Positions 30,652-64,000 are shown, counted from the stretch's first letter. The stretch: 64,000 nucleotides of DNA from an uncultured Gammaproteobacteria bacterium (GCA_964596525.1 CAZQUL010000001.1:1276312-1340311); one strand, 5' to 3'. Numbers and translations: made by a program. The notes: generated from the sequence alone by a model not told the origin.

Positions 30652-30660
30652 ATGGATATG

Positions 30661-30744
30661 TGCCCAGGAGAGGATTCGAACCTCCATTCCCTTACGAGAG
30701 CTACCACCTCAAGGTAGTGCGTCTACCAATTTCGCCACCTGGGC
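30661..30744 (-). tRNA. tRNA-Leu (anticodon GAG), CCA not encoded
   Basis: Minus strand GCCCAGGTGGCGAAATTGGTAGACGC...CTTGAGGTGGTAG...GGTTCGAATCCTCTCCTGGGCA; type II long variable arm; anticodon loop cTTGAGgt. Confidence 0.85.
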
Positions 30745-34893: not shown

Positions 34894-36927
34894 TTAGCGT
34901 TCGCTCGTGAGCATGATTTCACGCTTGCCGTCGAAGTTGACGTCCGCGGTTGCAATGCGCACATCAGAGGCAGAGCCGAAGATGCCGCGCGTTTCGTACT
35001 CGTCGCGCTTTTTGAGGGACGAATTGAAGATCCGGATGAGTGGACGGCCGGTTTCGGGCAAGGTAATGATCTCGTCGCGCCCATCCCCATCCACATCACC
35101 CGCCGCCACCTGCACGCCATCGGCGTATTTTTTGTCGTACGGGGTGAGGCGCGCTACAGCCTTGTAAAGAAACCGGTCGTAGATATAGATTTCATTAGCG
35201 CGGCCTTTGCCGGTGCCAACTAAGAGTTCTCCGTGTTTATCACCCACGACATTACCAAACGCCAGGGTAAAACCACCCTGGTATTTTGACCCGAGCGGGG
35301 TATCGGTTTTAATCTTTTGCCCAAGATGGTTGTAGACAACAAGCCCGCTGCCGACTTCTTGGGCTACCGCGATAGCGAGTGGGTCCGTGGCTACGAGCCG
35401 CCCGACTGCCAGCCGGATACCGTAACGGTAATACGCGCCAAAAGGAAAATCTTTAAAAACAACGTTACCCTGCGCATCGAGCACCTTAAGCTCCGGTCCT
35501 TCGACAATGACTTTTTCTTCGGTACCATCACCAGTCAGGTCACCAATGAAAAGGCGGGCACCAGAAGCGACCGCGCGGTCTTCGACAAATATGCCATTGC
35601 GAGCACGGAACCCTTTAGCGTCGAAGAAACGGGCAAATGATCCGTTGGTAAAAACAGAATTACGCACCACTTCGAATGTCTTGAGCACAACGAGCCCGTC
35701 CTGCGCTCCGATAGTGACTGCATCAACAATACGGCCGCTATTGACCGTGCGATCTTGCGTGCCGAAAAGCGTTTCAAAGTCGCCTTGGAGATCGACTTTT
35801 TTCTGTTCGTTAGATGGATTAACGAGCGCTACGCCATTTTGAAAATCACGCCGCCATACCGCGGTTTCTGCGTAGTCGAGCGGCGTTTTAACAACCGATT
35901 GGGCATTGCCGCGCGGTGCGCCGAGCGAGAAATTGTATTCGTCATACCACCACAGCTGCGTATGATCGTTAGTACCGTAATCGAACGAAAAATATCCGTC
36001 GTGCATCAGCGCGCTTGCCAGACCGAAACGCATTTCGCGGTAATCGTTCTGACGCCCGGTATTTTTGGTATTGCTATTGAAAATAAGCAGTCGTTTGCCA
36101 GGTGTAGACACGTAGTCGCGGGCGAGACCCATAGTGTAGCGCCAGCCGAATTCCGGAAAATTCTCAAAGAGCGCAGCCTGCAAGTCAGTACGGTAAACGG
36201 AACTGCCTGCACCCGTGTTGCCCGCAACAAGAAAACCAGACGGCACGACGCGCCGCGTCTCGGCAAAAAGCGAGCGGTAACCTTCGCGCCAGGCTTCATC
36301 GCCGTTTAAATCTGCCCGGCCATCGCGATTGTAGTCGGCCTGTCCTTTAGTGAACCATTCAACGTCTTGCCAAACGTTATCGTAAAAAACACCGTCCCAC
36401 ACGCCGGCAGTCGCGATTTCGCGTCCTACGAACTGGGCTAAATACGTGCTCCACCGGGTACCGCCGACGACCGGCGACGCAGCAGACATATTGAGCATGC
36501 TCGTACCCGGCCAAAAGGTGAGGCGGTTCTGGTTTGCGTCCGTGAGATACCATTCGGCAGCAATACCCTGCACGAGCTTGCGACGCATCGCGCTTGGGCT
36601 GGTAGCCGCATCATTAGCAATTTCTTGCGAGGTCACGTAAGCGAGCAAAATAATGGACGGATTAAGCTCACGCAATTTTTTAAGCTTTTCGGAATTGCGC
36701 GCCTGGTTTTCCATGTCGAGAATAACGATATCCCATTTGGCAAGTTCGGGCAGCTGATCATCGCGCAAATCCCACGCCAAAAAATAATTAGCAAGCCGCG
36801 GCGCGGTATGGCCTGGACGGAGCGGAGCCGCACGGGTAGCCAGCGGCGAAAAAAGTAAAAAAAGACTTGCGCAGGACGTAGCAAGAAGGAGAACGGTGTA
36901 AATTCGCTGGAAAAATCCTCGCATCAT
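34894..36927 (-). CDS. secreted protein: N-terminal glycoside-hydrolase-like domain plus C-terminal FG-GAP/VCBS-type repeats
   Basis: 677 aa; signal peptide LLLATSCASLFLLFSPLATRAA; C-terminal repeats GDLTGDGTEEKV, GDVDGDGRDEII, DVNFDGKREIM. Confidence 0.45.
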   Translation of the reverse strand: MMRGFFQRIYTVLLLATSCASLFLLFSPLATRAAPLRPGHTAPRLANYFLAWDLRDDQLPELAKWDIVILDMENQARNSEKLKKLRELNPSIILLAYVTSQEIANDAATSPSAMRRKLVQGIAAEWYLTDANQNRLTFWPGTSMLNMSAASPVVGGTRWSTYLAQFVGREIATAGVWDGVFYDNVWQDVEWFTKGQADYNRDGRADLNGDEAWREGYRSLFAETRRVVPSGFLVAGNTGAGSSVYRTDLQAALFENFPEFGWRYTMGLARDYVSTPGKRLLIFNSNTKNTGRQNDYREMRFGLASALMHDGYFSFDYGTNDHTQLWWYDEYNFSLGAPRGNAQSVVKTPLDYAETAVWRRDFQNGVALVNPSNEQKKVDLQGDFETLFGTQDRTVNSGRIVDAVTIGAQDGLVVLKTFEVVRNSVFTNGSFARFFDAKGFRARNGIFVEDRAVASGARLFIGDLTGDGTEEKVIVEGPELKVLDAQGNVVFKDFPFGAYYRYGIRLAVGRLVATDPLAIAVAQEVGSGLVVYNHLGQKIKTDTPLGSKYQGGFTLAFGNVVGDKHGELLVGTGKGRANEIYIYDRFLYKAVARLTPYDKKYADGVQVAAGDVDGDGRDEIITLPETGRPLIRIFNSSLKKRDEYETRGIFGSASDVRIATADVNFDGKREIMLTSER

Positions 36928-36960: not shown

Positions 36961-38025
36961 TCAATCATTCACCCCCGCCACGCGCTCATATACGCTTTCA
37001 TGCAAGCGCGCAACCGCGGTAATAGAGCAACGCTGGCTGCGCACACGAGCTGCTTCGCCTTGCCCACACAGTGCATCCCAATGTTTGTGGTACCAAATTA
37101 TTTTTTCTGCCAGCTGCGAGGTATTTTCTACCTCAAACAATGCGCCGGTAATGCCATCTTCGACGAGCTCGGTGAGCCCTCCGGTGCGGGCAGCGATAAC
37201 CGCGCGTCCGGCTGCCATAGCTTCCATAACCACGATACCCAAACCTTCCCAACGCGAAGGAGCAATGAGGAGATGGTGTGAGGTGAAAAGTTCGGGGATG
37301 GCTAAGCTGGTGCGCACGAAGTTAATGCGGTCTTTGAGGCCGAGTTCTTGGGCAAGCGCAGCAAGAGGTTCGTACAACTCACCTTCACCCACGCAGGTAA
37401 GCTGCCAATTGCCCGGCACATGCGCCAAAGCTTTGAGTGCAATGTCATAACCTTTCTGCTCAGTGAGGCGGCCGATCATAAGAAGTTTAAAGAGCTCAGG
37501 CGCAGCTGCGGGAACCGGAGGAACACTCGCGAAACGTTCGGTGGAAATGCCGCACCGGACAGTGGTAATGGGGGCGGTGATACGGTAAAAATCCTTCATC
37601 CAAACATGGATTGCCTCAGAGGTGGCGAGGTACGCAACGCTCAGATGGCACAGTTTTCGTTTGAACCACCCTTTAAGAGCAGATTCAGGGCGCACGTTAT
37701 GCTCGGTGGAAACGGTCGGAATACCGGCAAAGTACGCAGCGATGCGACCCCATGCATCTGCGCCAAAAAGATGGGTGTGTACAATGTCGGGCTTGAGTTT
37801 TTTAAGGAGATGGTAGAGCGGAATGATTTTGAGGGGACCGAAACCGCGGACGTCGTAGACGGCGGCATGCCGGCCGAGTTCGGGTGCGAGCGGACGGTCG
37901 GGATGAAAAAGAATGACACTCGAGCGAACGAGAGCCGGGTCGAGATGGTTAACAACATCAACGACATTGCGCTCCGCGCCGCCAAAACGCAGCGACGGAA
38001 TGATCTGCACGACATGAATGGGCAT
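36961..38025 (-). CDS. family 4 (GT-B) glycosyltransferase
   Basis: 354 aa; MPIHVVQIIPSLRFGGAERNVVDV... N-terminus and C-terminal EGLGIVVMEAMAAGRAVIAARTGG (E-x7-E region). Confidence 0.8.
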   Translation of the reverse strand: MPIHVVQIIPSLRFGGAERNVVDVVNHLDPALVRSSVILFHPDRPLAPELGRHAAVYDVRGFGPLKIIPLYHLLKKLKPDIVHTHLFGADAWGRIAAYFAGIPTVSTEHNVRPESALKGWFKRKLCHLSVAYLATSEAIHVWMKDFYRITAPITTVRCGISTERFASVPPVPAAAPELFKLLMIGRLTEQKGYDIALKALAHVPGNWQLTCVGEGELYEPLAALAQELGLKDRINFVRTSLAIPELFTSHHLLIAPSRWEGLGIVVMEAMAAGRAVIAARTGGLTELVEDGITGALFEVENTSQLAEKIIWYHKHWDALCGQGEAARVRSQRCSITAVARLHESVYERVAGVND

Positions 38026-59618: not shown

Positions 59619-59659
59619 AGATACGATAAAAACAGGGTTACTATAGCACAGCCCGCTAC

Positions 59660-59693
59660 AAAAGCACTACCCCGGGTTGGCGGAGTAGTGCTT
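59660..59693 (-). terminator. terminator hairpin downstream of the giant surface-protein gene
   Basis: AAGCACTAC-cccgggttggcgg-aGTAGTGCTT. Confidence 0.45.
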
Positions 59694-59700
59694 ATGAGAT

Positions 59701-62700
59701 TTAGAGCCCGAGTGGAATGCGTTCTGCAGGCGGTGGAGTGGTTTCGACCGGAGGCGGATCTTGGGTGGGAGGAGTTGAAGGTGGCGCAGATTCTTGCGGC
59801 GGGGTTGGTTCACTCTCGGAAGATGAGGGTGTGGCAGGCTCAGTTTCTGACCCTGCAGGAGAAGGCTCTTCTCCTACCGCCGGAGCCGGCTCCGAAGAAG
59901 GGGTGGAAGAAACAGTCGTTTCCGGCGTTGAAGACGGCGTGTCAGCGCCACTAATGGTCGTAGTTGGCACCTCTACCGAAGGAGTCGTAGAAGGCGCAGT
60001 GGTTTCGTCGATGGTCGGCGTAGAGGTAGCGGCTTCTTCGGTCGTGGTCGTCGGGACAGTAGACGTTGAAACAGGAACAGTGGAAGTGGGCACCGTTAAC
60101 GGAGCAGAATCTGCCGGTTCGGACTCAGGGGTTGCGTCCGGTACGACTACGTCGATGCGAGGAGTTACGACTGGCGCGTCGCTCACCGTCATGCGCGCTC
60201 GTTCCGAGGGTAAGAAGGCATGCCAGTTAAAGATAACGTCACGCGTTGTGGTAGGAGAAGTAAGGGCCAGAACAAAACTGCTTGTTGCCACACTCTTAAG
60301 CTTCCACGGATCTTCAAAGTCGACCGGGGTGGCAACAACAATTGGCGATCGGACATACGGATTTTCGAAGGTTACGCGCACTTCTTGAGATCCAGCCAAG
60401 ATTTTTGCCTCACCCACGCTGTCGACGCCAAATTCGGCATGACCATATACGGTGAGCTTACCACCCACGCGAGCGTTACCTTCCACCACCAAAGAATTAA
60501 GGGTAAGAAGAGAAATCTCGGCGTTCTGAATCATGGAAAGGACGGTTGAAGTGTTGATGTTGACCGATGTGTCACGCGGGGTTGCCTCAAGGAGTTCAAC
60601 GCGCGATCGAACAGCAGTAAGATCGTTCGCTAAACGATCGGTCGAGCTTACGAGCTTAGCGTTGAGCTCTTTTACGCCCTGGAGTAAATAGATGGGGATA
60701 AGATGGTAGTGAATACCCATATATCCACGACCCACATCGGGAGAAACGAGCTCCGGAAGATACTGCTCTGTATCCTGGGCGATCAAACCATACTGTCGGC
60801 TGTTACCCAGGTGGAGATCGGGAAATTCATCCGAGCGGAAGAAATAGGTGCTCGGCGTAAGCTGAACGAGTTTCTCAAGAACATTATTCAAAGGTTCTAG
60901 GTCTTTTTTGAGGCGGATATCGGAAGAACAGCTACCAATAAGACCAGTGCCATCATACCGGCGCAAACAACCATTGGTTCCGGCCGTACCGACGCGGATG
61001 TCACCTGCTACTTGGAGGACATCGTTAATGGTTGTTGTACCTACGCCAAGCAAAGGGCCGATAAAGGAGGGTGCCAGAGAGACAACGGCCAGAGGACCTG
61101 TAGAATTGATGCCGCCATTTCCAACATCAAGGCTTTGCTGGGCCTCTAATCTCCCGCGCACCGCCACATCACTTGAAGCTTGAAGGCCACCGACCTGCGC
61201 GCTTTGGGCGATAAGGCTTGTTACTTCGGTCCCTGTTACATCGATAACCAACATTTTACCCGGGCTTCCTTCAATCGACACATACGCATAGCGACCGTAA
61301 ACCTTGAGATCATATGCCAGATCATCAATATCAATAGAGTGGGCAAGTACGGGGCTCAGGGGAGAAGAAATATCAATGACAAGCAATTTTCCTGTACCGC
61401 GTTGGACAGCGTAGAGGTACCGCCCTGCTACAACGAGCTCACGAACATTAGCCCCGACAGTTGTCGAAGCGAGCACTACCTGACCATTTATCGGATCCTG
61501 CATGTCAGCAATATACAAGCTGTCCGTAGCATGGCCAACATAAAGGTAGCGCCCGCTAACAGCGACACTCGACGGGCCACTACCGACACTAAGATGAGTG
61601 ATGTAGATCGTGTTGGGGTTATTTGGGCTATACAGAGAGTAAATACCCACGGTATTTTCACCCTGATGCGCGATATACATATAATTACCATCGAAGGTAA
61701 GGGCTACAGGACCAACACCGGTAGAGGGACCAGAATATACAACTTTAGTATATTCCGGATCACCTATATCAAGAACTGAAACATAAGTTCCAACATAGTT
61801 AAGCACATAGGCATAACGCCCTCGAATATCAATTGAGACGGGGGAAGCGCCAACCGAAGAAACCGTTTTGACGAGAAAAGGAAGACTCGGATCACGAACA
61901 TTTAGGACAGTTACATCATCTGAGCCTCGATTGACCACAAAAGCATACTCACCAGCCACGGCAACGTCGCTCGGTTGCGTTCCCACCGTTGTTGAAGAAA
62001 TCTGGATAGGATTGCGCGGATTACTAATATTGATGGCAGATAAGGTATTAGAAGCTGCATTTGTGACAAAAAGATTTGCACCGGATTTGGCAAACCCGCG
62101 TGATCCATACCCAAGCGTCGTGCTTGCCACTACCTGCACACCAGAGTTTGGTCCGATCAAATTTTGGATATTTCCTTCTACGGTCAAGCGCGCCGCTGCT
62201 GTTGTGGTACCAATACTAAGAGCGCCACTCGTATTATTCCAAACAAGCGACGAAGTCTGCATGACACTGCCCGTCGGACTACCGAAAACCACCTGCCCAT
62301 CATTAAAATTGCTCAAATCACCTGGGCCGATAGTAGAAGTACTGACCAAACCGTTCGTGCCGCGCAAGAAACCGGTTAAGCCACTCAAGGTCAAGCTCGA
62401 AATAGTCGTCGTTGCCAGTGTAGAGGTTCCGGCAGCTGTCAGGTTGCCACCTACGTACTGACTGCCGGTCGTGGTTGCGTTGGTAGCTACTAAGTTGGTA
62501 GCAAAGAAATTAGTGCTCGTCGCATTGCCCAAAACCGCATTGGTGAGGGTGCCGAGCGTGGCCGCGAAATTAGTAGTGGTAAGATTGCCGCCCGTGGCGT
62601 TAGTGAAGCTGAGCAGGCTGGCAAAAAAATTGGTTGATGTGACATTGGTTGATGTGACATTAGCCAAGGTGTTGAAGGTGGCAGTAAACGTCGTCACGAA

Positions 62701-64000
62701 CGAGTTAGTTGATGTGGCGTTCGTCGAAGTAACGTTCGTTAAGGCGCTGTTAGTACCTGTAAGATTTGTAATAGACGCCGTATTAAGTGAGGCGTTTGTT
62801 CCGGTAGCGTTTACCCAAGTAAGATTCTGAAAATTAGAAGTTCCATCAATCTGAAGGTTATCGAAACTGCCGGTGGCGGCATGGATAATCGTAGCAGTAG
62901 CACTGCCCGTAACCGTAAGGTCGCCACCAATAGTGGCATTTCTCGTTACATCAAGCTGCGCCACAGTCGTCGTAGCCAGGGACGAAGTGCCAGTAAATGT
63001 CGCTGCCCCAGAGAGCGCCAGGTTGGTGCCGGTCGCGTTAGTAAATGTTAAGCTGGCAAGATTCAACGAACCGTTAAAGATGAGATTATCGAAGGTGCCG
63101 GTTGTGGCGTGCAGGTAGGTCGAAGTAGCATTAGTCGCGACTATATTTGTCGCAAAGAAATTAGTGGAGGTAGCATTACCCAAAACCGCATTAGTAAGCG
63201 TACCGAGCGTGGCAGCAAAATTAGTCGTCGTGGCGTTGGTCGAGGTGACATTCGTGAAAAGAGCGTTAACACCCGTCAAATTAGTTGTCGATGCTGAGAC
63301 TATAGAAGCAGTGGTACCGGTGGCGTTGGTAAAAGTAAGATCAGTGAGGTTTAAAGGACCATTCAACGACAAACTGTCAAACGTCGCTGTTGTGGCACGG
63401 AAAATCGTCGCGGTGGCATTCCCGGTGATCTGTACATCATTGGAAAATACAAAACGATTGTTGGTGGCATCCCACTGCAAATAATTGCTACCAGAATTAT
63501 TGAAATAGAAGAAGTTGTCGCCCGCCGTAGTGAAGCGTCCGAACGAGCCAAGGAGGAGTGCGCCTTGCATCGTGGTCGTGTTGACAGTAGTCAGACTTGA
63601 TACGGTAGTCGTCGCCAAACTCGACGTAGCAGTAGCAACGATCGGCCCACTGAAGGTGCTAGATCCGGTAGCGTACCAAGAACCAGTCGTGGTGGCATTG
63701 TTGAGAAGCGTATTTCCTGAAACGGTCAACTCGACGATGGTTGTAGTGGTAAGATTGGTAGCTCCCGTAGCTTTTAACTGATTTAAAGCCGTAACACCAG
63801 TGGAAGTGCCGTTGACCCACGTAATATCGCCAAAAGAACTACCGCTCGTGGCACCCGAAATCTGCTGGCCGTTCCAGTACAGGCTTCCACCCTGGTTATA
63901 CAAACTGAAGCTTGTCGTAGCCGGCGTAGTGGAAGCTAGAGAAATGCCACCGACTACCGAGAGAGCGTTATCAGGCGCGCTGGTGCCAATACCTAGGCGC
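59701..64000 (-). CDS. giant secreted/surface protein (5' end beyond window): Thr/Asn-rich beta-helical repeats, LVIVD-type beta-propeller repeats, S74-type intramolecular-chaperone (tailspike-like) domain, PT-rich tail
   Basis: More than 1430 aa within the window; the frame stays open to the right edge and the track's M at 63903 is TTG. Repeats such as ...TNATSTNFFATN...; LVIVD-like blocks GEYAFVVNRGSDDVTVLNV / GRYAYVLNYVGTYVSVLDI / GRYLYAVQRGTGKLLVIDI; S74-like SSDIRLKKDLEPL...YGLIAQDTEQYLPELV; C-terminal PT/ST-rich low-complexity tract. Confidence 0.7.
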   Translation of the reverse strand, partial: RLGIGTSAPDNALSVVGGISLASTTPATTSFSLYNQGGSLYWNGQQISGATSGSSFGDITWVNGTSTGVTALNQLKATGATNLTTTTIVELTVSGNTLLNNATTTGSWYATGSSTFSGPIVATATSSLATTTVSSLTTVNTTTMQGALLLGSFGRFTTAGDNFFYFNNSGSNYLQWDATNNRFVFSNDVQITGNATATIFRATTATFDSLSLNGPLNLTDLTFTNATGTTASIVSASTTNLTGVNALFTNVTSTNATTTNFAATLGTLTNAVLGNATSTNFFATNIVATNATSTYLHATTGTFDNLIFNGSLNLASLTFTNATGTNLALSGAATFTGTSSLATTTVAQLDVTRNATIGGDLTVTGSATATIIHAATGSFDNLQIDGTSNFQNLTWVNATGTNASLNTASITNLTGTNSALTNVTSTNATSTNSFVTTFTATFNTLANVTSTNVTSTNFFASLLSFTNATGGNLTTTNFAATLGTLTNAVLGNATSTNFFATNLVATNATTTGSQYVGGNLTAAGTSTLATTTISSLTLSGLTGFLRGTNGLVSTSTIGPGDLSNFNDGQVVFGSPTGSVMQTSSLVWNNTSGALSIGTTTAAARLTVEGNIQNLIGPNSGVQVVASTTLGYGSRGFAKSGANLFVTNAASNTLSAINISNPRNPIQISSTTVGTQPSDVAVAGEYAFVVNRGSDDVTVLNVRDPSLPFLVKTVSSVGASPVSIDIRGRYAYVLNYVGTYVSVLDIGDPEYTKVVYSGPSTGVGPVALTFDGNYMYIAHQGENTVGIYSLYSPNNPNTIYITHLSVGSGPSSVAVSGRYLYVGHATDSLYIADMQDPINGQVVLASTTVGANVRELVVAGRYLYAVQRGTGKLLVIDISSPLSPVLAHSIDIDDLAYDLKVYGRYAYVSIEGSPGKMLVIDVTGTEVTSLIAQSAQVGGLQASSDVAVRGRLEAQQSLDVGNGGINSTGPLAVVSLAPSFIGPLLGVGTTTINDVLQVAGDIRVGTAGTNGCLRRYDGTGLIGSCSSDIRLKKDLEPLNNVLEKLVQLTPSTYFFRSDEFPDLHLGNSRQYGLIAQDTEQYLPELVSPDVGRGYMGIHYHLIPIYLLQGVKELNAKLVSSTDRLANDLTAVRSRVELLEATPRDTSVNINTSTVLSMIQNAEISLLTLNSLVVEGNARVGGKLTVYGHAEFGVDSVGEAKILAGSQEVRVTFENPYVRSPIVVATPVDFEDPWKLKSVATSSFVLALTSPTTTRDVIFNWHAFLPSERARMTVSDAPVVTPRIDVVVPDATPESEPADSAPLTVPTSTVPVSTSTVPTTTTEEAATSTPTIDETTAPSTTPSVEVPTTTISGADTPSSTPETTVSSTPSSEPAPAVGEEPSPAGSETEPATPSSSESEPTPPQESAPPSTPPTQDPPPVETTPPPAERIPLGL

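Follow-up and report, generated by a model that had tools for sequence, protein, structure and literature searches.

Among the closest known counterparts of the fibre reported here are the phage endosialidase tailspikes (endoNF/K1F), in which, as in the fibre, a propeller is followed by a stalk and then by an S74 chaperone, and the eukaryotic protein MYRF, whose S74-type ICA domain, again like that of the fibre, lies inside the chain and has a functional segment after it. The Ser and Lys of the two systems have the same S(i)/K(i+5) spacing (S911/K916 in endoNF and S587/K592 in MyRF), the cut falling on the N-terminal side of the Ser, and cleavage of MyRF is lost on mutation of either residue (PMC8326128).

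The gene examined here lies on the minus strand at the edge of the window, by which we mean the whole 64-kb stretch of DNA that was analysed. Its frame is uninterrupted over 1432 codons (window 59701-63999, minus strand) up to the window edge, in keeping with a preliminary description of this DNA that had placed more than 1400 residues in the window and the 5' end beyond it; the first 418 codons are outside. Extension of the gene to full length, a check proposed in that description, gave an 1850-aa protein (P0001, in which window residue 1 is residue 419) that is intact upstream. The complete gene is present without a frameshift on the 1.34-Mb NCBI contig and on Logan contig L001 (10001-15553). 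Both motifs quoted previously, DIRLKKDLEPL and YGLIAQDTEQYLPELV, occur in the translation, and the order of parts given there is right: a repeat shaft, then an LVIVD propeller, then the S74 intramolecular chaperone and last a PT-rich tail. Coordinates of the individual features are collected in Table 1.

Table 1. Features of the fibre gene and its product, in window coordinates
Feature	Position	Strand	Residues (window numbering)	Basis or remark
Fibre gene, 3' 77% (1432/1850 codons plus stop at 59701-59703)	59701..64000	-		open frame; 100% match to P0001
Thr/Ser/Asn-rich repeat shaft, in-window part, diverged internal modules	62224..63999	-	1-592 (full-length 419-1010)	
Collar segment with motif W-N-N-x-x-G-x-L-S-I-G-T-T	62083..62223	-	593-639	read from sequence
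Seven-bladed LVIVD/YVTN-type beta-propeller	61162..62082	-	640-946	Pfam LVIVD; predicted from sequence
Gly-rich stalk running into the cleavage site, Cys-x11-Cys pair directly before the scissile bond	60925..61161	-	947-1025	
S74 intramolecular chaperone/autocleavage domain, including C-terminal helix with heptad-like spacing	60469..60924	-	1026-1177	
Predicted nucleophile Ser codon	60922..60924	-	1026 (full-length Ser1444)	Pfam S74 match begins here, profile position 1
Predicted general-base Lys codon	60907..60909	-	1031 (full-length Lys1449)	Ser + 5 residues
Predicted six-stranded beta-sandwich, H-type-lectin-like, following the S74 domain and the predicted cut	60169..60468	-	1178-1277	AF2, Foldseek
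Pro/Thr/Ser/Glu-rich tail, 155 residues, presumably disordered	59704..60168	-		composition; hydropathy and motif scan

The neighbouring ValRS has its best named relatives in Candidatus Magasanikbacteria (57-63% identity), which is the basis for placing the bacterium in a Magasanikbacteria-like CPR lineage; the named homologues of the fibre are nearly all from Patescibacteria. On these two grounds the earlier wording, an episymbiont-like genome, is reasonable. A life attached to other cells is ascribed to CPR/Patescibacteria, and to our knowledge little of their attachment machinery has been described beyond pili. The surrounding genes are housekeeping genes (ValRS, Pth, TyrRS, ArgRS, DnaB, PGK, enolase and iPGM). 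The 82 nt that separate the fibre gene from that for ValRS showed neither a promoter-like nor a terminator-like site and, because a terminator-like site is lacking there, the two may be co-transcribed.

The N-terminus of the full-length protein, MRKFLSWLLTAGLLLVLSIQTVAAA/VPQ, resembles a Sec-type signal peptide, and in 11 homologues a conserved N-terminal domain begins directly after an A-x-A-type site. Hydrophobic segments are present at the N-terminus of 61 of 85 complete homologues and at the C-terminus of 1 of 98. The N-terminal domain returned no family match and no PDB sequence match, and the matches to its predicted fold were generically Ig-like (pLDDT 69, TM <=0.41). Neither end of the protein showed a wall-anchoring motif: the mature N-terminus has neither a lipobox nor a TM anchor, and the tail has neither a TM segment nor LPXTG, the hydropathy of its last 40 residues reaching at most -0.1. 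The LPXTG-then-TM arrangement of a sortase- or TM-anchored Gram-positive-type adhesin is thus absent from this protein.

The shaft is rich in Thr (22%), Ser (13%) and Asn (10%), matching in composition the Thr/Asn-rich character first ascribed to it. Its repeats were not detected by a BLASTP self-comparison of the protein and were revealed by windowed internal Smith-Waterman alignment (scores of 150-256 against 61+/-12, maximum 96, for a shuffled null); at the DNA level a GTSTLATTTV-coding motif occurs six times and a 114-nt repeat is found at 79% identity. The collar that follows carries a motif found again ahead of S74, and in homologues the same motif class lies upstream of S74. Pfam LVIVD (PF08309) matches the propeller in three stretches (E 5.6e-13, 48.4 bits against a gathering cut-off of 20.2), and the TIGR02276 YVTN repeat matches weakly, under its cut-off. 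What had been described as several LVIVD-style blades is therefore of that type, and their number can now be given exactly as seven: tandem blades of 43-45 aa, each beginning G-x-[YNL]-x-[YF]-[VIA], start at window residues 640, 683, 727, 771, 816, 859 and 902. A Cys pair like that of the stalk, shortly upstream of the Ser, is present in 45 of 111 motif-matching S74 domains (130 collected).

A profile search for the suspected S74 domain matched Pfam Peptidase_S74 (PF13884; E 2.2e-12, 47.5 bits against a gathering cut-off of 22) over window residues 1026-1085, corresponding to profile positions 1-57 of 58, and an in-house HMM matched residues 1022-1120. The Ser-Lys dyad on which this assignment had been made to depend is present, in the context S-D-I-R-L-K (residues 1026-1031), and shows no exception among 44 homologous domains, as judged from their listed motifs; the GLIAQ...PELV core motif is conserved as well. 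The region around Ser1026 aligns with SSDRRIKKD of PDB 6F45, and cleavage is predicted N-terminal to this residue. From these features we infer that the fibre would trimerise and cleave itself. The S74 domain is not the C-terminal end of the protein: some 255 residues come after the ~150-aa chaperone domain, and among homologues roughly 100-600 residues beyond the S74 core are common.

The first part of this downstream segment is a lectin-like domain. Its AF2 model (pLDDT 89) has Helix pomatia agglutinin as top Foldseek match (probability 1.0, E 5e-3, TM 0.45-0.48), with phage tailspike C-terminal domains also among the top matches; it also resembles viral tail-fibre proteins and proteins annotated 'H-type lectin domain' (TM 0.46-0.51 for the latter). 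At the sequence level, the top PDB profile matches are H-type lectins but are marginal (E 0.12), and Pfam H_lectin (PF09458) gave no match to the domain's own sequence at E<=1 and weak matches in 16 of 20 aligned family members (best E 1.1e-4). An exhaustive search of cluster representatives found the domain in 4016 of them, mostly giant Patescibacteria proteins; when the lectin-domain profile was used in a word-indexed search, 4 short proteins were the only matches. Of the 137 best new representatives with the domain, 89 have S74 directly upstream of it, and the gap between the two has a median of 15 aa across all 103 proteins with both. In homologues lacking S74, a 'GDxLxxSxxPGxAM' region that precedes the lectin-like domain was considered as a Peptidase_G2-type chaperone, for which Pfam gave no support. 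The last 155 residues consist of Pro (23%), Thr (21%), Ser (15%) and Glu (11%), with Pro, Thr and Ser together making up 59%, much as the Pro/Thr/Ser-rich tail had been described. Proteins that combine S74 with a lectin-like domain and a disordered tail are widespread. The parts of the self-processing fibre or adhesin proposed earlier are thus borne out, but the lectin-like domain between S74 and tail had been missed, and its place beyond the predicted cut leaves the simple picture of an adhesin incomplete.

The domain identities, the conservation of the dyad, the intact gene, the export-type N-terminus and the cellular, non-phage context are all observed. Our conclusion, with a probability of roughly 0.6, is that a Magasanikbacteria-like CPR bacterium here encodes a Sec-exported surface or extracellular fibre, probably trimeric and self-cleaving, that follows the design of phage tail fibres or tailspikes and may have a role in binding host cells. 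The signal peptide would direct export and leave the conserved Ig-like domain as the mature N-terminus, followed by a modular Thr/Ser/Asn-rich shaft of ~850 residues, the LVIVD propeller as a ligand-binding head and the short stalk. Outside the cell the S74 chaperone would join three chains, nucleate folding of the upstream fibre and then cut N-terminal of Ser1026 (full-length Ser1444) by means of the Ser1026/Lys1031 dyad, yielding a mature fibre of ~1417 residues and a 407-residue fragment comprising chaperone, coiled coil, H-type-lectin-like sandwich and P/T-rich tail. We propose that this C-terminal fragment is more than a waste product: it may act both as a trimerisation clamp and as a glycan- or wall-docking module, and so keep the C-termini of the three chains aligned at the cell surface during folding of the long fibre.

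The presence of a conserved lectin-like domain after S74 is not explained by the canonical phage model, in which S74 is terminal and discarded. A tentative extension, which we hold to be possible rather than probable, is that S74, lectin-like domain and P/T-rich tail form a distinct, undescribed 'assemble-then-cut' cassette for building very long extracellular fibres in cellular organisms, mainly CPR bacteria, in which the downstream piece has a function of its own. Examples of such a function are wall-glycan docking during assembly, or service as a cap that can be removed from the tip of the fibre. Its partner may be a membrane protein with CarboxypepD_reg-like domains that is conserved upstream.

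Other arrangements of the same parts can be imagined. The cut could act as a release switch, as in MYRF, with the cassette remaining wall- or glycan-bound while S74 autocleavage sheds the N-terminal fibre as a free trimer. Such a mechanism has a precedent in MyRF, where a large functional segment follows the ICA and cleavage frees an N-terminal trimer (PMC8326128). The strong conservation of the cassette and a mature N-terminus free of lipobox or TM anchor would also suit release. P/T-rich segments beside wall-binding modules are, moreover, common in monoderm surface proteins. The sequence downstream of the cut, however, lacks a TM segment, LPXTG and any known wall-binding domain, binding of the cell's own wall by the lectin-like domain is speculation, and the conserved N-terminal Ig-like domain suggests that the N-terminus docks too; we consider release unlikely. 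We regard as less likely again a fibre that is never cut, in which S74 would be a trimerisation and folding nucleus only and the sandwich of the intact chain its distal receptor-binding tip. A strict near-C-terminal position in thousands of proteins is what a tip domain would show, and the post-S74 fold matches C-terminal domains of phage proteins (LKA1 gp49, phi297 gp61, Pam1, Sf6 and R-pyocin fibres) as well as H-type lectins, but the full invariance of the dyad is hard to account for absent catalysis, and a disordered tail of 155 aa comes after the supposed tip.

The remaining two readings concern the setting of the fibre. YVTN/LVIVD propellers are known in archaeal and bacterial surface-layer proteins, and a structural envelope protein, that is, a propeller fibre in an S-layer-like coat and not a host-cell adhesin, would fit the housekeeping neighbourhood and possible co-transcription with ValRS. 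The extreme range of length (117-5238 aa) and the highly variable domain content of the family fit fast-evolving interaction proteins better than a lattice protein, and we hold this reading to be very unlikely. Least credible of all, to the point that we give it almost no weight, is a part of a virion or other particle, with the protein serving as tail fibre to a prophage, a tailocin or an extracellular contractile injection system (eCIS) encoded in the genome. The S74 part does match two tail-fibre PHROGs (phrog_14572 and phrog_33119) and 638 phage records (at <=42% identity), relatives are named as tail fibre proteins by NCBI, and eCIS tail fibres are known that carry both S74 and H-lectin domains (PMC12923769). 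Coverage in a tblastn search of the S74+lectin query against 50,697 phage records never extended beyond the S74 part. The Sec-type signal peptide of this protein speaks against a particle component, phage and eCIS fibres being assembled in the cytoplasm. No phage or eCIS gene was found in the 64-kb window or the 10 kb upstream, and a PHROG search of ten unannotated ORFs in the window gave no match. Homologues at five further loci (L003, L004, L005, L007 and L008) likewise lie among housekeeping genes, and the GC content of the fibre gene (0.50-0.51) is unremarkable against a window range of 0.495-0.561. The fibre gene lies outside any prophage, in a cellular context. Of the alternative raised at the outset, a domesticated phage module, shared ancestry with phage tail fibres is supported and a prophage location is not.

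The preferred reading, an exported self-cleaving fibre, adds a member to a large, already-labelled but uncharacterised family and introduces no new principle. We found no description of this family in the literature on S74, LVIVD or tail-fibre proteins in CPR/Patescibacteria, and a scan of GTDB representatives with the S74+lectin segment returned one distant Verrucomicrobia locus only. What gives the protein significance is its membership of a very large family, that of exported giant fibres in which components of phage receptor binding (self-cleaving chaperone, propeller, lectin-like sandwich) are put to use again. Should contact with the host be made through these fibres, they would be obvious determinants of specificity and targets for the pull-down of host partners, and the conserved lectin-like domain past the cut poses the question of what role a cleaved intramolecular chaperone fragment might have.

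The nearest known proteins include the Patescibacteria relatives, labelled 'tail fiber domain-containing protein' by NCBI. Those with the same plan (LVIVD and Peptidase_S74, 1000-2500 aa) include P0003 (Ca. Vogelbacteria), P0014, P0040, P0051 and P0070 (Ca. Buchananbacteria), and many relatives share the post-S74 lectin-like domain, the low-complexity tail and the N-terminal domain; they differ in being 25-34% identical over parts only and in having other shaft modules. EndoNF/K1F and phage tail fibres (PDB 6F45, a long tail fibre distal subunit) share the SDxRxK dyad and the GLIAQE core motif. Unlike the fibre, however, phage S74 proteins are virion parts without a signal peptide, in which S74 is the C-terminal end and is discarded, and the propeller of the endosialidases is a catalytic sialidase whereas that of the fibre is an LVIVD repeat. 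In MYRF, Ser-Lys self-cleavage N-terminal of the Ser depends on trimerisation (PMC8326128), while in the fibre such cleavage is predicted; MYRF is a transcription factor of the eukaryotic ER membrane with a TM helix after its ICA domain, whereas the fibre is bacterial, exported and free of TM segments. H-type lectins (Helix pomatia agglutinin, discoidin II and SLL-2) and phage receptor-binding C-terminal domains have a six-stranded beta-sandwich like that predicted for the fibre; similarity in sequence is marginal, and TM values reach no more than 0.45-0.65.

The fibre gene occupies the window's end as a single frame of 1432 codons, still open at the window edge, with 418 further codons beyond it (the first residue in the window is number 419 of the full-length protein). 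A search across 5.8 billion proteins returned an identical full-length product of 1850 residues (P0001), present on both a 1.34-Mb NCBI contig and a 24.9-kb Logan contig; sequencing run SRR11567528 contains the gene. The gene is therefore intact, which answers the concern of a preliminary description that it might be interrupted upstream. The N-terminus, outside the window (MRKFLSWLLTAGLLLVLSIQTVAAA, with VPQF following the putative cut), begins with basic residues and has a hydrophobic core of 12 residues (Kyte-Doolittle 2.6) and an A-x-A site. A hydropathy scan found no further TM-like segment in the protein beyond this core, and a motif scan found no LPXTG motif.

A domain of ~140 residues follows the signal peptide. 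At least 11 homologues have it as their mature N-terminus, and in each it begins directly after an A-x-A-type site. It had no Pfam match and no PDB sequence match; AF2 modelled it as a beta-sandwich with moderate confidence (pLDDT 69), and a structure search with that model returned only generic Ig-like neighbours. The next ~850 residues form a shaft rich in Thr (22%), Ser (13%) and Asn (10%). It is built of diverged internal modules that score 150–256 in local alignments, versus 61 ± 12 for shuffled controls, and the coding DNA of the shaft contains weak repeats. The Pfam LVIVD match of the predicted beta-propeller exceeds the gathering score. A viral family of unknown function, phrog_22523, matches the collar and first propeller blades, and LVIVD-type propellers therefore occur in phage proteins too.

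The stalk that follows is Gly-rich, carries a Cys-x11-Cys pair and precedes the sequence S-S-D-I-R-L-K-K, within which a Pfam Peptidase_S74 match begins (window residue 1026, E = 2.2e-12). Among solved structures the best relative is the distal subunit of a phage long tail fibre (6F45), and the SSDxRxKKD motif is common to both. Cleavage in endoNF (S911/K916) and MyRF (S587/K592) requires both members of a Ser-Lys pair spaced five residues apart, and takes place N-terminal to the Ser (PMC8326128). The fibre's counterparts are Ser1026 and Lys1031 in window numbering (Ser1444 and Lys1449 of the full-length protein). The architecture proposed in the preliminary description (repeat shaft, LVIVD blades, S74 domain and PT-rich tail) was essentially right, and the Ser-Lys dyad for which it proposed a check is present.

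S74-like domains of the homologues, gathered with an iterated profile, numbered 44 in 43 proteins. As read from their listed motifs, the Ser at position i and the Lys at i+5 are kept in all 44, which argues that selection acts on catalysis, beyond trimerisation alone. A cut between Ser1443 and Ser1444 is predicted to yield a fibre of about 1417 residues (27–1443) and a C-terminal fragment of 407 residues. The Cys-x11-Cys pair sits directly before the predicted scissile bond and may form a disulphide-closed loop at the mature fibre's new C-terminus; of 130 S74 domains collected, 111 match the motif, and 45 of these have a similar pair. On the other side of the chaperone core, the sequence reads as a helix with 3–4 hydrophobic spacing.

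That helix leads into a domain of ~100 residues (full-length 1596–1695), overlooked in the preliminary description, and then into a C-terminal tail of 155 residues (23% Pro, 21% Thr, 15% Ser and 11% Glu). The domain is common to about 20 of 98 homologues, at the same position. Pfam H_lectin did not match the window sequence itself and weakly matched 16 of the 20 aligned family members (best E = 1.1e-4); the top four hits of a PDB profile search were Helix agglutinins, but at E = 0.12–0.49. The domain was confidently modelled as a six-stranded sandwich (AF2, pLDDT 89), with Foldseek neighbours that include Helix pomatia agglutinin and C-terminal domains of phage tailspikes and pyocin fibres. 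Matching predicted viral structures were named 'H-type lectin domain', 'tail fiber protein' and 'K1 capsule-specific polysaccharide lyase C-terminal domain'; TM-scores of the fold matches were modest (0.45–0.65). Because of the weak sequence matches and modest TM-scores, we call the domain H-type-lectin-like rather than assign it to the H-type lectin family.

Searched exhaustively with a profile, 1.84 billion cluster representatives yielded 4016 proteins with this lectin-like domain at E ≤ 1e-3 (2753 at E ≤ 1e-10). Among the best 150 of the 4016 matches, protein lengths range from 117 to 5238 residues and the domain nearly always lies 100–250 residues from the C-terminus. An S74 domain stands directly upstream in 89 of 137 new representatives drawn from the top matches, and the median gap between the two is 15 residues in the 103 collected proteins that carry both. 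Given these counts and this adjacency, the cassette of S74 domain, lectin-like domain and P/T-rich tail is common. A tblastn search (E ≤ 1) of 50,697 phage records gave no match to the lectin-like domain, and no PHROG family matched it; 638 of the phage records matched an S74-plus-lectin query through the S74 part only. In five giant homologues (P0056, P0073, P0076, P0047 and P0031) the domain follows an S74-less region with the motif GDxLxxSxxPGxAM; of 47 long proteins that lack S74, 17 have this motif. We suspected this region of being another autoprocessing chaperone; Pfam finds no match there.

Coordinates of the fibre gene, its parts and associated features (L001 is a Logan contig with the full fibre gene; L004–L007 carry homologous fibre genes)
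Feature	Location	Strand	Remarks
Fibre gene, 3' part	window 59701-63999	-	stop codon 59701-59703
Collar and first blades, phrog_22523 match	window 61614-62228, window aa 591-795	-	E 4.7e-13
Beta-propeller, LVIVD-type	window aa 640-946	-	seven blades of 43-45 aa; Pfam LVIVD E 5.6e-13
Cys-x11-Cys pair	window 60925-60966, window aa 1012-1025	-	GC LRRYDGTGLIGS C S/SD (slash, predicted cut)
Fibre gene-ValRS gap	window 59619-59700		82 nt
CarboxypepD_reg-like membrane protein, 584 aa	L001 7351-9105	+	three genes upstream of fibre gene, beyond window
Counterparts of the 584-aa protein	L004 7034-9766; L007 7401-9767; L005 1510-2445		
Tandem iPGM paralogue pair, 527 and 528 aa	L001 2736-4319, 4397-5983		Metalloenzyme and iPGM_N matches
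P0050, S74 and lectin-like domain, 1191 aa	L006 10001-13576		on 4.37-Mb contig
GHL15 glycosyl-hydrolase-like domain and FG-GAP repeats protein, 677 aa	window 34894-36927	-	
GT4 glycosyltransferase	window 36961-38025	-	adjoins 677-aa GHL15-like protein
tRNA-Leu(GAG)	window 30660-30744	-	sole RNA gene found in window (Rfam, ARAGORN)

The fibre gene lies in a cellular context. ValRS, 57–63% identical to proteins named Candidatus Magasanikbacteria, lies immediately downstream; no promoter-like or terminator-like site was found in the intervening gap, and the two genes may be co-transcribed. Other neighbours are Pth, TyrRS, ArgRS, MacB/FtsX transporters and DnaB, with PGK, enolase and two iPGM genes upstream beyond the window; both of the latter match cofactor-independent phosphoglycerate mutase, and the pair adjoins enolase. 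Housekeeping neighbours also occur at five homologous fibre genes, each in its own contig, and the named homologues are Patescibacteria nearly throughout. The GC content of the gene (0.50–0.51) is inside the window's range. Elsewhere in the window are ORFs for MreB, ABC exporters, XseA, a Mur ligase and glycosyltransferases, and ten unannotated ORFs gave no PHROG match; the GHL15-like and GT4 gene pair is possibly another surface-glycan locus. The genes on either side of P0050 encode two phage-type integrases, AbiEii, a TrwB-like ATPase and a relaxase, and the cassette therefore travels on mobile elements too; the genome that carries P0050 is large and non-CPR-sized.

In the 584-residue membrane protein, two CarboxypepD_reg-like domains alternate with TM segments; it also has a signal peptide and a P/T-rich linker. 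Over 306 residues it shares 38% identity (E = 4e-55) with the product of the gene directly upstream of a distant fibre homologue, the Patescibacteria LVIVD and Peptidase_S74 protein P0051. An upstream trio (proteins of ~312 and ~250 residues and the CarboxypepD_reg-like membrane protein) is common to L004, L007 and L005; the membrane protein is absent from two other contigs of homologous fibre genes (L003 and L008). The protein is a candidate for a conserved partner of fibre genes.

The best-supported reading, to which we assign a probability of roughly 0.6 as a general model, is that the protein is exported as a fibre that assembles in the manner of a phage tail fibre, although outside the cell. 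Sec translocation would bring the chain out N-terminus first, and the C-terminal S74 domain would emerge late, trimerise, nucleate folding of the upstream stalk and shaft, and afterwards cut at Ser1026 (window numbering). The propeller, close to the new C-terminus, would be the likeliest ligand-binding head; the role in host attachment suggested in the preliminary description is a hypothesis. That the protein is instead a virion or eCIS component would fit the presence of both S74 and H-lectin domains in eCIS fibres (PMC12923769), but the protein's export signal, taken together with a cellular context and the lack of particle genes, argues against it.

Within the exported-fibre model, the unexplained feature of the cassette is the place of the lectin-like domain after the cleavage site. 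Our preferred guess is that the lectin-bearing fragment acts during assembly, as a trimerisation clamp or a wall-glycan dock. Candidate alternatives are that it is a wall-bound anchor from which the fibre would be released, as in MYRF, or that, in a chain that stays uncleaved, the lectin-bearing part is the true receptor-binding tip. We hold any such specific role with less confidence than the general model.

The S74 and LVIVD profiles and motifs are all found in the fibre, and it clearly belongs to a large Patescibacteria group that carries the NCBI name 'tail fiber domain-containing protein'. We found no description of this group in literature on S74, LVIVD or tail-fibre proteins in CPR/Patescibacteria; it is already annotated but uncharacterised, and the present protein adds another member. 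In its order of propeller, stalk and S74 domain the fibre resembles the endosialidase-type tailspikes, to which its working may be likened. It differs from phage-type proteins in that phage neighbours are absent, a signal peptide is present and its S74 domain is not terminal.
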